Shown here: positions 6,595 to 42,128 of the stretch, piece by piece | Layout: each line of letters begins with the position of its first letter | Numbering within the stretch: position 1 is the first letter of the stretch | Notes under the pieces: generated by a model | Database searches by the model: none | Seen by the model: only the letters and a program-made list of their open reading frames with translations | Told to the model about the DNA's origin: nothing | Made by a program: the position numbers and the translations under genes | From: an uncultured Candidatus Saccharimonas sp. | GTDB taxonomy: Bacteria; Patescibacteriota; Saccharimonadia; Saccharimonadales; OMJO01 | Length of the DNA: 64,000 bases | Assembly: GCA_943353165.1 (NCBI GenBank) | Contig: CALRAM010000002.1 | Coordinates: forward strand, 65,716 to 129,715 | Direction: 5' to 3'

Positions 6595-8270
6595 GTATAA
6601 CCCAAAAAGACACTATTTATATCGACATAGACGACGAGATAACCTCTGTTATAGAAAAAGTTAATGACAGCAAAAGCAAGATATTGGCGTTAGTATTACC
6701 AAAAAGAGCAGCAGTTTTGCAGAGCACCGTAAATATGCGTTTGCTAAAAAGAGCCGCCAAAGAAAGTAACAAAAGTGTCGTGTTGATAACTTCGGAGACT
6801 GCCCTGTTGCCATTGGCTGGAGTTGTCGGCTTGCATGTGGCTAGAACCTTGAACTCCAAACCAGCTATACCGCCAGCGCCAGACACAGACGCCTCGCACA
6901 TAACCATAGATGATGATCTGTCTAGTTCTGATGTAGAAGAGCTAGTAGATATAGACCCTAAAACAACGGTAGGAGAATTGGCGGGCGACGCCATGCCCAA
7001 CGAAGATGAGCCTATAGTAGTGGATTATGACGAAGACGACCAAGCAAACGAACACAAGACCGAAAAACCTGTAAAAGATAAAAAACTAAAGGTACCCAAT
7101 TTTGACCGTTTCAGGACAATAATATTGCTCGGCGGTGGCGCGTTGGTAATGCTGTTGACGTTAGGGATCTGGGCATTTGTTGTTGCGCCAAAGTCAACTA
7201 TTACGATTAGCACCAACACATCTCCTCTGAGTAGCTCCGTTATATTAACGGCCAGCACATCTGCAAAGACGTTGGACAAGGCCCAGCAAATTGTTCCGGC
7301 CAGCACCAAAGAATCAAAGAAAACCGATACACAAAAAGTTCCGGCCACAGGCGAGAAGAATAATGGCACAAAAGCAGGCGGCACGATGACAGTTTTCTAT
7401 TGTCCAAGCAACGACAACACACAGATTAGTTTGCCAGCAGGTAGTGCTTTCGTAAACAACGGTGTAGTTTTCCGCACAAATGTAGCAGTTACTGTTCCGG
7501 CCAGCAATTTTCTGGGTGGGGGTACATGCAAAAAAGATTTATCTCAAAATGTGGCAGTTACATCAGAACAAGCAGGCGACAAATACAATTTAAGCTCTAG
7601 AAGCTACATTGGTGTAGATAACTCGGCAATTTCGGGAACAGGTTCGGCAATGAGTGGTGGCACTAGCAAAATTGTCAAAGTTGTTAGTCAGTCAGATGTT
7701 GATGCAGCAAAACAACAAATGCTAGACCGCACAAAAACCGCAGCTATAACTGAGCTGACTAAACAGTTCAATGATGCCAATATGTTTGCATTGACCGACA
7801 CTATAACAGCAGTATCTCAGACAGCAACACCGTCGCCGAGCGTCAACGAGGAAGCCTCCGAAACTACTGTAGGTCTAAATGTTACATATGCTATGACGGG
7901 TATCTCGAAATCAGACTTGAAACTCCTAGTAGAGGCCAGCGTAAAGGACAAGATAGATCTTAGCAAAGAACAGATACAAGATGAAGATTACGGGCTAGGC
8001 AAGGCCAGCGTAAAGATTCAAGAAAAGAAGGCCAACGGCGACACAAAAGTAGAGATACAATTTCAGCTGAGCATAGGCCCGAAGCTAGAGATTGATGCGC
8101 TAAAAAAAGAAGTAGCAGGAAAAAAACGCGGCGATGTAGTAAATTTGATAAATAGTAGACCGGGCGTCAAGGATGTTTCTGTTAGATACAGTCCTTTTTG
8201 GGTAATGTCTACTCCTAGCAACCCCTCAAAGATAACCATAGTACTAGAAAAAATAAATGACAATAAATAA
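6591..8270 (+). CDS. Hypothetical bitopic membrane protein, translationally coupled to ftsA
   Basis: ATGA overlap with the ftsA stop. About 95-aa N-terminal domain, acidic linker, one TM helix (ILLGGGALVMLLTLGIWAFVV) and a large Ser/Thr-rich outer domain. Confidence 0.55.
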   Translation: MSITQKDTIYIDIDDEITSVIEKVNDSKSKILALVLPKRAAVLQSTVNMRLLKRAAKESNKSVVLITSETALLPLAGVVGLHVARTLNSKPAIPPAPDTDASHITIDDDLSSSDVEELVDIDPKTTVGELAGDAMPNEDEPIVVDYDEDDQANEHKTEKPVKDKKLKVPNFDRFRTIILLGGGALVMLLTLGIWAFVVAPKSTITISTNTSPLSSSVILTASTSAKTLDKAQQIVPASTKESKKTDTQKVPATGEKNNGTKAGGTMTVFYCPSNDNTQISLPAGSAFVNNGVVFRTNVAVTVPASNFLGGGTCKKDLSQNVAVTSEQAGDKYNLSSRSYIGVDNSAISGTGSAMSGGTSKIVKVVSQSDVDAAKQQMLDRTKTAAITELTKQFNDANMFALTDTITAVSQTATPSPSVNEEASETTVGLNVTYAMTGISKSDLKLLVEASVKDKIDLSKEQIQDEDYGLGKASVKIQEKKANGDTKVEIQFQLSIGPKLEIDALKKEVAGKKRGDVVNLINSRPGVKDVSVRYSPFWVMSTPSNPSKITIVLEKINDNK

Positions 8271-28148: not shown

Positions 28149-28201
28149 TTGAATGCATTAAAGTTCCGGGATCGAAACCGATTGAACCTAGTTCAGTAGG
28201 A

Positions 28202-28230
28202 TTGTGACAGTGAGCGCAATCTTGTAAAAT
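28202..28230 (+). promoter_or_regulatory. Promoter of tRNA-Leu(CAG): TTGTGA - 17 nt - TAAAAT
   Basis: -35 at 28202-28207 and -10 at 28225-28230; the tRNA starts 9 nt after the -10. Confidence 0.55.
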
Positions 28231-28420: not shown

Positions 28421-30061
28421 ATGAATAAAATAGCACATTATCTGCAGGAACATTTGTCCGGTGAAGTTATGACCAACCAGGAAGCACTGGAGTATTTTTC
28501 TACCGACGCCAGTATCCTGCGCTTAACTCCATCTATCGTGGTGTACCCACGGAACGAAAACGATATTCGTAAAACTACCAGATTTACTTGGCAATTGGCC
28601 GAAAGAGGCAGAGTAATACCCCTGACTGCTCGTGGATCAGGAACAGATCAGAGCGGCGCAGCGCTTGGTAGCGGGATTGTCATGATTTTCCCTGCTCATA
28701 TGCACAGAGTTTTGGATCTGGATGGAAAGACCGGCACAGTAACCATAGAACCCGGAATAAACTACGGAACACTACAACAAACTCTACATACACACGGCAG
28801 GTTTTTGCCACCGTATCCTGCGTCAAAGGAGTACAGCACAGTTGGAGGTGCCATAAGCAACAATGCCGCTGGGGAAAAAACAATAAAATACGGTAACACC
28901 CGTGATTATGTCAAAAGTTTGCGCGTTGTGCTGGCCAATGGCGAAGTCATAGAAACACGCAGAATATCCAAAAAAGAGCTAAACAAAAAATTGGGGTTGG
29001 CAACCTTTGAGGGTGAAATATATCGTAGCTTAGATGTTTTAATAGAAGAAAATAAAGCCGTATTGTCTAATTTAGCGCCCAAAGTAACAAAGAATTCATC
29101 TGGTTATGCCTTGGATTTGGTAAAACGAAAAGACGGCAGCTTTGACCTGACACCGCTAATTGTTGGCTCGCAGGGCACTTTGGGAGTGGTCAGCGAAGCT
29201 GTACTAGGAACAGAGCCTCATAACCCCAAAACGACATTGATCGTTGCTTTTTTCGACGATTTGGTGGTAGCCGAAGCAGTGTTGTTGGAATTGGATAAAA
29301 TATCTGATACACCAAGCGCCATAGAGGCGGTGGACGGAAATTTGCTAAAACTAGTTAAGTCCAAAAATCCAAATCTACTAAAGGGTGTCATAGATTCAAC
29401 TCTACCAAAGCTAGTTTTGCTGGTAGAGTTTGACAATACAAGCGATCGAATCCAAAAAAGCTTGGCCAAACGCGTAGAAAAGATAATGGCTAGCCAACAG
29501 ATAACCTGTCAGATAGAAACCGATCCCGCTGCACAAGAAAAATTGTGGAGTATCCGCCGAATGTCAGCGACAATTGCGGCTAGTGTTGATGCAAATGGAG
29601 CAAAGGCTTTGCCAATGATAGAAGATGGAATTGTGCCATTGGCTAGGTTCAAAGATTATATGCACGGAGTCTATGCACTGTTTGAGCGCTATGGCCTAGA
29701 AGCTGCAGCTTGGGGGCATGCAGGAAACGCCAACCTACATATGCAGCCGTTTCTGAACTTGTCGCAGGTCGGAGACCGTCAAAAAGTATTTAGGTTACTA
29801 GATGAGTACTATGAACTAGTGCTAAGCATGGGCGGTAGTACAACAGCAGAGCATGGCGATGGTCGTATCAGGGGGCCATATTTGCCCAGAATGTTCCAGC
29901 CCGAAGAATATGAATTGTTCCAAAAAACAAAGCAGATTTTTGATCCTTATGGCACCTTGAATCCGGGTGTCAAAATCGATGTAAAGATAGAAGACATAAA
30001 GCCACTACTCAGACACGAATACAGCACGGCTCATTGGCTACAACATATGCCGCACAACTAG
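28421..30061 (+). CDS. FAD-linked oxidase (GlcD / D-lactate dehydrogenase family)
   Basis: FAD_binding_4-type motifs (ARGSGTD, GGAISNNAAGEK) and a C-terminal oxidase domain. The start could be ATG 28421 or TTG 28397. Confidence 0.8.
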   Translation: MNKIAHYLQEHLSGEVMTNQEALEYFSTDASILRLTPSIVVYPRNENDIRKTTRFTWQLAERGRVIPLTARGSGTDQSGAALGSGIVMIFPAHMHRVLDLDGKTGTVTIEPGINYGTLQQTLHTHGRFLPPYPASKEYSTVGGAISNNAAGEKTIKYGNTRDYVKSLRVVLANGEVIETRRISKKELNKKLGLATFEGEIYRSLDVLIEENKAVLSNLAPKVTKNSSGYALDLVKRKDGSFDLTPLIVGSQGTLGVVSEAVLGTEPHNPKTTLIVAFFDDLVVAEAVLLELDKISDTPSAIEAVDGNLLKLVKSKNPNLLKGVIDSTLPKLVLLVEFDNTSDRIQKSLAKRVEKIMASQQITCQIETDPAAQEKLWSIRRMSATIAASVDANGAKALPMIEDGIVPLARFKDYMHGVYALFERYGLEAAAWGHAGNANLHMQPFLNLSQVGDRQKVFRLLDEYYELVLSMGGSTTAEHGDGRIRGPYLPRMFQPEEYELFQKTKQIFDPYGTLNPGVKIDVKIEDIKPLLRHEYSTAHWLQHMPHN

Positions 30062-30077
30062 GACACTGGTTGCCAAA

Positions 30078-30106
30078 TTGAGTTTTTGGCAAAAAAATTG
30101 TAAAAT
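30078..30106 (+). promoter_or_regulatory. Promoter in front of the truncated tRNA-Leu copy: TTGAGT - 17 nt - TAAAAT
   Basis: -35 at 30078-30083 and -10 at 30101-30106. It shares the TTGTAAAAT context with the tRNA-Leu(CAG) promoter. Confidence 0.45.
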
Positions 30107-30156
30107 AACGTGGTAAATGCGCGAGTGGTGGAATGGTAGACACGCTTGTCTGAGGG

Positions 30157-30185
30157 GTGAAACCCGCCTGTGGCGGGTTGCAAGG
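30157..30185 (+). repeat. GC hairpin repeat, copy H1 (gtgaaacccgcc-tgt-ggcgggttgcaagg)
   Basis: Stem 30161-30168 / 30172-30179 with a 3-nt loop. It directly abuts the tRNA-Leu 5' fragment. Confidence 0.85.
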
Positions 30186-30311
30186 TCGGAAGCCTGGATT
30201 GCGCAAGCAACCAAGCTGAGACGGGGTCGCAAATGATTGGGAACTAATGTTCCCAGTAATATTGTGACAGTGCCGCAAGGTGATCCCCGTCTGTGGCAAC
30301 CAAGTCCTCTC

Positions 30312-30320
30312 TGGTATAAT
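30312..30320 (+). promoter_or_regulatory. Extended -10 box TGgTATAAT for the intact tRNA-Leu(GAG)
   Basis: Ends 24 nt upstream of the tRNA 5' end. It sits where the acceptor 3' strand of the truncated copy would be. Confidence 0.55.
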
Positions 30321-30344
30321 TACTTGAACCCTGTATCGATAAAT

Positions 30345-30428
30345 GCGCGAGTGGTGGAATGGTAGACACGCTTGTCTGAGGGGCAAGTGCCGCAAGGTGT
30401 GGAGGTTCAAGTCCTCTCTCGCGCACCA
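30345..30428 (+). tRNA. tRNA-Leu (anticodon GAG), CCA encoded
   Basis: Hand-folded. Acceptor gcgcgag/ctcgcgc, anticodon stem cttgt/gcaag, loop ctGAGgg, variable arm with a GCAA loop, T arm ggagg-ttcaagt-cctct. Confidence 0.9.
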
Positions 30429-30437
30429 AAACAAAAT

Positions 30438-30466
30438 AACGACCTCTAAGGTCGTTTTGTTGTTTT
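30438..30466 (+). terminator. Intrinsic terminator after tRNA-Leu(GAG)
   Basis: Stem aacgacc/ggtcgtt followed by a U-rich tail. Confidence 0.7.
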
Positions 30467-30489
30467 GTAGCCGAGGACTTGAACCGAAA

Positions 30490-30519
30490 GGTGAGACCCG
30501 CCTGTGGCGGGTCGCAAGG
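30490..30519 (+). repeat. GC hairpin repeat, copy H2 (ggtgagacccgcc-tgt-ggcgggtcgcaagg)
   Basis: Stem 30495-30502 / 30506-30513. Confidence 0.85.
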
Positions 30520-30647
30520 ACTATTGACTGATTTAATACTTGTTTTAAGTAAGTCAAAGTCGGGGTTGCGCTAGCGTGACCAAGTCCCCCGCCTGTCTGA
30601 CCGAGCCCCCTGTCTTTTTGACAAGAAGGCCAGGCAGGACGGACAGG

Positions 30648-30756
30648 TCTCTCGCGCACCAAAACAAAATAACGACCTCCATGGTCGTTTTGTTGTTTTG
30701 TAGCCGAGGACTTGAACCGAAAGGCGAGACCCGCCAGTGGCGGGTCTCAAGGACTA
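30648..30756 (+). repeat. 109-nt direct repeat, copy 2 (orphan tRNA-Leu acceptor 3' strand + CCA + terminator + linker + hairpin H3)
   Basis: Starts at tctctcgcgcacca with no tRNA body upstream. The five differences from copy 1 fall in or next to hairpin loops and at one stem-closing position. Confidence 0.9.
30723..30752 (+). repeat. GC hairpin repeat, copy H3 (ggcgagacccgcc-agt-ggcgggtctcaagg)
   Basis: Perfect 10-bp stem gagacccgcc/ggcgggtctc. Confidence 0.85.
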
Positions 30757-30767
30757 GATACTAATTT

Positions 30768-32716: not shown

Positions 32717-32792
32717 GCGGGTGTAGCTCAGTTGATAGAGCGCTTCCTTGCCAAGGAAGAGGCCAGGAGTTTGAGTCTCCTCACCCGCACCA
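32717..32792 (+). tRNA. tRNA-Gly (anticodon GCC), CCA encoded
   Basis: Hand-folded. Acceptor gcgggtg/cacccgc, anticodon loop ttGCCaa, T arm aggag-tttgagt-ctcct. Confidence 0.9.
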
Positions 32793-32800
32793 TATAAAAT

Positions 32801-32825
32801 GCCTCAGCTAGTCTGGGGCTTTTTA
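32801..32825 (+). terminator. Intrinsic terminator after tRNA-Gly
   Basis: Stem gcctcag/ctggggc followed by TTTTT. Confidence 0.7.
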
Positions 32826-32844
32826 TATGGTTTGACGACTCATA

Positions 32845-32967
32845 CTCCTGGCCTCTTCAAAGATAAAATATGGCCAGGATTGCTCGCGAACGCGCCTGTG
32901 GTCGGGAGTTTTTGAGTCTCCTCACCCGCACCATATAAAATGCCTCAGCAAACCTGGGGCTTTTTAT
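32845..32967 (+). pseudogene. Rearranged 3' fragment of tRNA-Gly with a 27-nt insert in the T stem, plus a duplicated terminator
   Basis: An inverted 14-mer of tRNA nt 40-53 (32845-32858), direct ggccagga (32872-32879), then the insert ttgctcgcgaacgcgcctgtggtcggg. T loop, acceptor 3' strand, CCA and terminator follow (32914-32967, matching 32773-32826). Confidence 0.8.
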
Positions 32968-33041
32968 TTGGCGATAGTCTTGTAAAATATGGGATATTAT
33001 AGTATAATCTGTAAATAATTTCATAAGGAAAGAAAATTAAG

Positions 33042-41869: not shown

Positions 41870-41879
41870 AAGTACGACT

Positions 41880-41888
41880 ATTATAGCA
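41880..41888 (-). promoter_or_regulatory. Extended -10 box TGcTATAAT for the intact tRNA-Ala
   Basis: Ends 10 nt upstream of the tRNA 5' end on the minus strand. Confidence 0.55.
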
Positions 41889-41975
41889 AAAAGGGTTCGA
41901 AATATTTTAGGGATTCGACTCACCTTAGGCGAGCCCGTCGCAACATCTATGCAAACCAGTTTGCAAGAGTTGACT

Positions 41976-42006
41976 CCCTTGCAACCCGCCACAGGCGGCT
42001 TTCACC
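41976..42006 (-). repeat. GC hairpin repeat, copy H4 (ggtgaaagccgcc-tgt-ggcgggttgcaaggg)
   Basis: Same 30-nt motif as H1-H3. It abuts the tRNA-Ala 5' fragment exactly as H1 abuts the tRNA-Leu fragment. Confidence 0.85.
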
Positions 42007-42128
42007 TTGACCTCTTCCATGCCATGGAAGCGCGCTAGCCAACTGCGCCAATGCCCCAAGTATGGTGTTTGGTCTGGCACCACCTAGATATAATACATTA
42101 TTTTAGTATGCGTATTTAATGCTAAAGT

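Follow-up and report, generated by a model that had tools for sequence, protein, structure and literature searches.

The intact tRNA-Gly(GCC) gene in the 64,000-nucleotide stretch of Candidatus Saccharimonas sp. DNA analysed here (the window) is followed by a scrambled partial copy of its own 3' half, and the question raised by this locus is what kind of event leaves such a copy behind and what the short insert within it represents. Genes around the locus, judged by their nearest relatives, assign the window to Candidatus Saccharibacteria (TM7), a group of the Patescibacteria. The preliminary description had listed the pieces of this copy, and all of them were recovered at their positions (Table 1), including the 27-nt insert and the direct ggccagga that forms an 8-bp hairpin with the inverted piece; two of its measurements changed. 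The inverted copy is genuine, but it comprises 22 nt of the tRNA (nt 40–61) rather than the 14 nt (nt 40–53) first reported, and the duplicated 3' end agrees at 51 and not 50 of 54 positions, with three differences instead of four, confined as described to the terminator loop. A 13-nt spacer separates the inverted T-arm piece from the direct ggccagga, and tRNA-Gly nt 54–76 recur unchanged at 32911–32933. At its full extent the direct repeat covers 61 nt (32770–32830 and 32911–32971) with a period of 141. Eleven assemblies of the species carry the locus (L001, nine of L041–L050 and the window itself), and the appendix is equally long in each, which establishes that it is real and fixed and no assembly artefact. 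These 11 strain assemblies, each with the same appendix, yielded no intermediate form of the insert. The 236-aa protein downstream of tRNA-Gly, used to seek relatives of the locus, is confined to this species, and ABC-F relatives at 82% identity were rejected as locus comparators because they are not syntenic.

Table 1. Features of the tRNA-Gly(GCC) locus and of the related modules at other tRNA genes of the window
Feature	Position	Strand	Basis or score
tRNA-Gly(GCC), intact, CCA encoded	32717–32792	+	ARAGORN; Rfam tRNA 70.4 bits
Terminator 1, 7-bp stem and T run	32801–32826	+	
Inverted copy of tRNA-Gly nt 40–61 (21/22), the stereotyped inverted T-arm piece	32837–32858	+	
Direct ggccagga, tRNA-Gly nt 45–52 (end of variable region and first 4 T-stem nt)	32872–32879	+	
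27-nt insert, eroded remnant of element E	32880–32906	+	alignment and shuffles
P1-like core gcgaacgcgcctgtggtcggg of the insert; P2 and P3 gone	32886–32906	+	
Pseudo T loop, 3' T stem, acceptor 3' strand, CCA	32907–32933	+	
Terminator 2, duplicate of terminator 1 with 3 loop substitutions	32942–32967	+	
Upstream-type module, tRNA-Leu(GAG)	30114–30339	+	E 47 bits
Its first parts: pseudo 5' part (-5 to nt 39); E, P3 loop enlarged	E 30156–30268	+	
Its next parts: variable-arm nt 42–55; P1 remnant; T-loop nt 64–75; inverted T-loop piece	P1 remnant 30281–30299	+	
Downstream-type module(s), tRNA-Leu(GAG)	30429–30767	+	66 and 27 bits
First parts: terminator; inverted T arm; E; T-loop piece; nested 60-nt insert	E 30490–30581; insert 30588–30647	+	
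Later parts: tRNA nt 71–84 and terminator; second inverted T arm; lone P1	P1 30723–30752	+	
Upstream-type module, tRNA-Ala(GGC)	41875–42062	-	E 97 bits
Its parts: pseudo 5' part -5 to nt 53; E; T-loop piece; inverted T-loop piece; TATAAT	5' part 42005–42062; E 41918–42006	-	

What, then, is the insert? Four copies of the hairpin motif GTGARACCCGCCTGTGGCGGGTYGCAAGG are present in the window, always beside a partial copy of tRNA-Leu(GAG) or tRNA-Ala, and its core was found at 34 loci in a scan of one genome per species (about 24 of them from Saccharibacteria or Patescibacteria) and at 34 more in a metagenome scan. Throughout the scanned loci, chance matches outside Saccharibacteria aside, the motif is the first hairpin of an element of ~90 nt, here called E, which consists in order of GGUGARA, hairpin P1 (NNCGCC-UGU-GGCGNN), YGCAAGG, a long and variable hairpin P2, GGGG and hairpin P3 (GUCGCC-GAA-GGUGAC). 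Since GGUGA stands at both ends, the exact limits of E are ambiguous. The Gly insert aligns with P1 as AACGCGCCTGTGGTCGGG against AACCCGCCTGTGG-CGGG, a score matched by 14 of 20,000 shuffles of the insert and reached by none of the 25,221 other 31-mers of the window. The similarity thus exceeds chance and supports the proposed homology between the Gly core and the hairpin motif at Leu and Ala; the proposal that the insert and its counterpart in the tRNA-Ala pseudo-copy interrupt the T stem at one and the same point was likewise borne out. A covariance model of the full element, run with filters off at E≤10, gave no match at 32880–32906, which identifies the insert as a fragment and not a complete copy, and its assignment to E follows from the 18-nt alignment together with the shared architecture. 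In another species (L016/L019) a full-length E lies at tRNA-Gly(GCC) in the same downstream layout, and the window holds two further P1-only remnants, one at tRNA-Leu(GAG) at a position where L073 reads GTGAGACCCGCCGGAGGCAA and one at the end of the downstream Leu(GAG) array (Table 1). The P1 similarity, the full E at the tRNA-Gly of the other species and the comparable remnants lead us to read the Gly module as an old copy that lacks P2 and P3. By itself, the Gly feature is an ordinary decayed copy of E, and the 27-mer is not the separate unit that it had seemed to be but the eroded first hairpin of a three-hairpin element.

The structure of E is strongly supported by covariation. RNAalifold applied to an alignment of 23 sequences resolved three hairpins with compensatory changes in 19 of 31 pairs, and a covariance-model alignment of 70 copies from ~50 Saccharibacteria contigs showed 94.4% of cells paired and double (compensatory) changes at 29 of the 31 pairs. 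None of 500 shuffles paired as well, and sliding the partners lowered pairing to 31–42%. G-U or U-G combinations fill 120 cells of the alignment against 19 for A-C or C-A, and one G-U pair in P3 is conserved in 53 of 62 copies; this excess of G-U over A-C indicates that it is the tRNA-sense strand that folds, either as RNA or as single-stranded DNA. Genuine copies score mostly 45–104 bits against the model, with truncated or eroded ones down to 27, and the 21-mer matches seen in GC-rich genomes outside Saccharibacteria, at 26 bits or less, were set aside as chance. Searches of Rfam 15 at the gathering score returned tRNA models only and no family for E, and at E≤10 just sub-threshold matches at chance level. 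Phage records, plasmid records and viral contigs contained no E, and no description of it was found in the literature. As judged from the sequences compared, the family is confined to Saccharibacteria and has not been described previously. Within 3 kb of E at 23 loci no protein gene recurs, the only open reading frames in common being spurious ones that overlap E itself, which suggests that whatever moves E acts in trans.

The positions taken by E are highly stereotyped. Approximately 55 of 69 non-redundant instances have an intact tRNA gene within 500 nt, and E lies on the same strand as that tRNA with one exception. The junction falls after tRNA nt 52/53 in 33 cases, after nt 36–39 in nine, and after nt 24 and nt 18 in two each, all of which are exposed loops or junctions of the cloverleaf (T loop, anticodon loop and D region), and GG precedes TGARA in ~65 of the 69 instances. 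The tRNA identities represented are Gln, Pro, Ser, Leu, Gly, Lys, Ala, Val, Glu, Phe, Arg, His, Asp and Ile, and in tRNA genes E almost always lies inside a truncated copy that stands beside the intact gene. Two layouts recur across at least 14 tRNA identities. In the upstream type, a 5' tRNA part is followed by E, ~10 nt of tRNA, an inverted T-arm piece, an AT-rich spacer containing TATAAT and the intact tRNA; in the downstream type, the intact tRNA and its terminator are followed by an inverted T-arm piece, ~10 nt of direct T stem, E and tRNA nt 55 to CCA, with a second terminator copy at the end in some modules. The order of the Gly appendix (terminator, inverted T-arm piece, direct T stem, insert, nt 54–76, terminator) is exactly that of the downstream layout, and an inverted T-arm piece like that of the appendix is present in 17 other downstream-type modules. 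One pseudo-tRNA-Pro (L011 4230–4434) carries two full E copies, after nt 25 and after nt 55, and precedes an intact tRNA-Pro, and at L033 900–1000 E is inverted relative to the surrounding tRNA-Phe fragments, its junction again following GGG, here on the complementary T-stem strand.

An intron-like state of the insert in intact tRNA genes had also been suggested. However, such a state was not encountered: the 11 assemblies with the locus all carry the appendix beside an intact tRNA-Gly, and when E was excised over a range of lengths from the 69 instances, ARAGORN made a single call, a spurious one of 95 nt, so that removal of E restored a complete tRNA in none of the 69.

E also inserts outside tRNA sequence. 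Copies nested in other copies of E occupy the single-stranded GGG between P2 and P3 (L021, L053, L057, L058 and L076), and four copies lie in the loop of a conserved hairpin that is not a tRNA (L060 100–260, L078 2310–2480, L080 975–1155 and L083 460–635), of which an uninterrupted version is present at L058 4190–4290. These nested and non-tRNA insertions are simple, with no consistent duplication and a loss of 2–4 host nt. The non-tRNA host itself is a conserved, intergenic and hairpin-rich sequence of the form CGGGTGGCGTTCGGCGG...GCACCC...AGGGGCGGACCGRRCGACAGGACCCG, and because it has no Rfam match it may be an undescribed small RNA.

E-type modules are found at four of the eight tRNA genes of the window, with intact E at tRNA-Leu(GAG), in two copies and a lone P1, and at tRNA-Ala. 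The direct repeats of tRNA segments that flank the units measure 61 nt (Gly), 58 nt (Ala), and 44 and 120 nt (Leu). A syntenic strain (L001), ~98% identical across the 22 kb compared, lacks both the 188-nt Ala module and a 233-nt Leu(GAG) unit; the Ala unit is missing from L045 as well and is variable in further strains. Conversely, L001 carries an E upstream of tRNA-Leu(CAG) that is missing from the window. At that place the window (28165–28228) has a T-arm-like remnant, ccgggatcgaaaccg, followed by attgaacc, where the sequence of L001 (3867–4003) comprises a complete E, a T-loop piece and cttgaacc. The Ala and Leu sites that lack a module need not be pre-insertion states, since secondary deletion between the direct repeats could also have emptied them. 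Comparison of copies at different tRNAs is informative in another respect: E is 97% identical between tRNA-Arg (CCU) and tRNA-His and 94–95% identical between tRNA-Arg (GCG) and tRNA-Lys (UUU), and in each case its flanks are pieces of the local tRNA, which implies that E moves alone and that the tRNA pieces around it, direct and inverted alike, are generated at each site. On these comparisons E is most likely a non-autonomous mobile element. A further polymorphism lies just upstream of tRNA-Phe (window ~32545), where L042, L045, L048 and L050 carry a 132-nt unit made of a diverged pseudo-tRNA-Phe (nt 1–37, broken at 37/38) and ~90 nt that are not E ahead of the intact gene; the unit is missing from the window, L001, L041, L043, L044 and L046. 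Since this pseudo-copy has no E, partial tRNA duplication appears possible without it.

How might such modules arise? We think it probable, with appreciable room for doubt, that the Gly appendix is an old, fixed and eroded module of the downstream type, left by a mobile non-coding element peculiar to Saccharibacteria. E would enter single-stranded loops of structured-RNA genes directly after GG(U), and it may move through a folded single-stranded intermediate, either an RNA that is copied back into DNA or a single-stranded DNA acted on by an enzyme whose gene lies elsewhere. Template switching at insertion or repair would then produce both the partial duplication of the target and the fold-back piece. 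At tRNA genes the survivors may be those outcomes that retain an intact copy, the duplication allowing a cell whose tRNA genes are single-copy to survive, and the modules would later vanish by recombination between their own direct repeats or decay, as the putative deletion of P2 and P3 from the Gly module would illustrate. Two regularities bear on this scheme. The truncation point of the pseudo-copy lies ~10 nt past E wherever E sits, and this dependence argues for a coupling of duplication to insertion and against E having colonised older pseudo-copies. Moreover, an inverted T-arm piece separates the E-bearing fragment from the intact gene in every case, and its sequence derives from a T arm without interruption. 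This is the mark that a fold-back or template switch would leave; known transposition chemistry does not account for the origin of this piece. Two narrower ideas were not upheld. An RNA intermediate bounded by transcript ends was considered against the ends of the repeats: upstream-type repeats begin 0–18 nt before tRNA +1, one (L038) including the -10 box, and downstream-type repeats include the terminator in some cases and not in others. A role of the inverted T-arm piece as a promoter element or guide was rejected, the spacing to TATAAT being variable and the piece lying 5' or 3' of E according to layout.

A more radical version of this scheme makes E a bacterial mobile element of a new kind, one that spreads as RNA. 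Folded E RNA would become joined into tRNAs and other structured RNAs at their exposed loops, following GG(U), and the chimera, copied into DNA, would recombine beside the parent gene to give the partial duplication and the fold-back piece. If this were true, E would be a bacterial counterpart, in non-spliceable form, of the archaeal 'transposing' tRNA introns. We regard this version as doubtful.

Alternative hypotheses assign the modules a different origin or purpose. One is that the E-bearing tRNA fragments are functional host RNAs, regulating the transcription or processing of tRNAs as leaders or trailers, or serving as decoys or sponges with a tRNA-like scaffold, with the fold of E maintained by host selection and not for mobility. 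Long-term conservation of the fold, with its very strong covariation and conserved G-U pair, could reflect such a function, and the agreement in strand with the neighbouring tRNA (one exception), the location of upstream-type modules behind the native promoter region and ahead of the intact tRNA with predicted co-transcription, the occupation of tRNA-Leu(UAG) nt 37/38 in three species (L031, L040 and L081) and the fixation of the Gly module in 11 of 11 assemblies would all be in keeping with it. However, a host RNA would not be expected to come and go among ~98% identical strains, to be optional at any of at least 12 tRNA identities or to appear in near-identical form at unrelated tRNAs; copies also decay to fragments (the Gly insert, the remnant within the upstream Leu module and the lone P1), and nesting of E in E disrupts the P3 of the host copy. 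We consider this explanation unlikely. Least probable of the readings weighed here is that the Gly insert has nothing to do with E, the match to CGCCTGTGG reflecting chance or convergence of a GC-rich hairpin and the appendix being an ordinary local duplication. The silence of the covariance model over the insert would agree with this, as would a further occurrence of the 9-mer in the window, at 7345, but the alignment statistics given above, the placement of the insert exactly where E sits in downstream-type modules, complete with inverted and direct T-arm pieces, and the full E in the same layout at the tRNA-Gly(GCC) of another species leave it highly improbable.

Site-specific integration provides a further candidate, in which the modules are scars left at tRNA genes by miniature derivatives of integrative elements, without an integrase and similar to cis-mobilisable elements, accreted in tandem, and E is an attachment-site arm. 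Each unit is indeed flanked by 44–120-nt direct repeats of tRNA sequence, whole units are gained and lost between strains, and the 132-nt pseudo-tRNA-Phe unit is polymorphic without any E. The breakpoints lie in the anticodon loop and T loop, which are the classical integrase sublocations within tRNA genes, as Williams is said to have set out in 2002. The same source and that of Pavlovic and colleagues (2004) reportedly describe att scars at tRNA genes and cis-mobilisable elements of integrative elements, with which E modules share partial tRNA repeats around a unit of gain and loss, preservation of the intact tRNA and tandem accretion (at Leu(GAG) in the window and at L039). Yet tRNA sequence flanks E on both sides instead of forming a one-sided junction, the units measure only 141–233 nt with no integrase, and no recombinase gene recurs within 3 kb at 23 loci. 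Unlike att scars, which pair one element type with one tRNA target by way of a shared core, E is found at many tRNA identities (at least 12) and at four positions (nt 18, 24, 37 and 53), within E and in a non-tRNA hairpin; its one-strand fold with G-U pairs is unexpected of a double-stranded att arm, and phage and plasmid records contain no match. Integration scars are accordingly a distinctly unlikely source, and the mobile-element reading is the most probable of those weighed.

Several other known systems resemble E in part. In PMC4033280, a review that cites Fujishima et al. 2010, archaeal tRNA introns at non-canonical positions are described as having spread by 'intron transposition' in Thermoproteales. 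Like E, they are short structured inserts of similar sequence shared by many tRNA species (PMC4033280), located at positions 37/38, in the D region and in the T arm, in small or streamlined genomes. E differs in being bacterial and in residing in truncated pseudo-tRNAs beside an intact gene and not in spliced genes. In the consensus, the 5' end of E lies in P1 and the 3' end in P3, and both read GGUGA; as direct repeats they are unable to pair, so that no bulge-helix-bulge can form. We also know of no splicing endonuclease in these bacteria. Group I introns in the tRNA genes of Patescibacteria share with E the phylum, the insertion into tRNA genes and a structure at the RNA level, but they are self-splicing ribozymes at 35/36 of complete genes (PMC13011429). 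Their conserved P3–P8 catalytic core, usually in more than 200 nt, is missing from E, which has three simple independent hairpins in ~90 nt and never lies in a complete gene, and the Intron_gpI model matched E neither at the gathering score nor at E≤10.

REP/BIME sequences and the palindrome-associated elements derived from IS200/IS605 have GC-rich hairpins, insert by a short target without clear target duplication and are mobilised in trans. They resemble E in being small, non-coding and multi-copy, and in a one-strand fold with subterminal hairpins, P1 lying near the 5' end of E and P3 at its 3' end. Unlike them, E combines three different hairpins with a conserved G-U pair and is directed to loops of tRNAs and other structured RNAs, where at tRNAs it is accompanied by partial gene duplication and an inverted piece; no Y1 transposase was linked to E among the proteins within 3 kb of the 23 loci. 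Classification as a MITE was rejected, given direct ends (GGUGARA ... GGUGAS) in place of terminal inverted repeats and the absence of a target duplication of fixed length. Bacterial rRNA intervening sequences are sporadic, strain-variable stem-loop inserts of ~100 nt that RNase III excises with function kept. They share with E the insertion of stem-loops into loops of structured-RNA genes and the variation between strains, but they occur in rRNA helices, bring no target duplication and show no sequence similarity to E. Wherever the comparison can be made, E fails a defining feature of each of these families. We rate the family as new among small non-coding mobile elements; that its mechanism is new in kind seems rather unlikely, yet it is a real prospect.

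Saccharibacteria have genomes of ~1 Mb with single-copy tRNA genes. Despite this, half of the tRNA genes in the window bear modules, and these differ between near-identical strains. Support for E as a structured, RNA-like family is strong, no library contains it, and its stereotyped seat in tRNA loops, with the intact gene spared, would point to a mechanism of insertion or repair undescribed in bacteria. The element gives direct access to the question of how disruption, duplication or splitting of tRNA genes comes about. In practical terms, E yields spurious ORF calls and pseudo-tRNA matches, and its modules can serve as fine-scale strain markers. A 'hypothetical protein' of 141–217 aa is called across the Leu(GAG) E modules (window 30009–30662, minus strand; L041 6968–7621; L001 5784–6209), and spurious open reading frames overlap E and tRNA pieces at eight further loci.

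Two additional observations concern the breadth of the family and the company it keeps. Nested copies of E with divergent P1 stems were noted at L021 572–600, L053, L058 8959–8986 and L076 167–195; examples are ACAATTC-UGU-GAATTGT and AUUGCC-AGU-GGCAAU, and these copies retain UGARA, the U/AGU loop and YGCAAGG. Their divergence indicates that the E family is broader than the pattern CGCCTGTGG used in the scan. Finally, a second short repeat with inverted ends, CCCGCCTGTCTG(A/G)CCGA...CAGGACGGACAGG, constitutes the nested insert in the downstream pseudo T arm of tRNA-Leu(GAG), and it recurs beside E in another species, upstream of the first E of L028.
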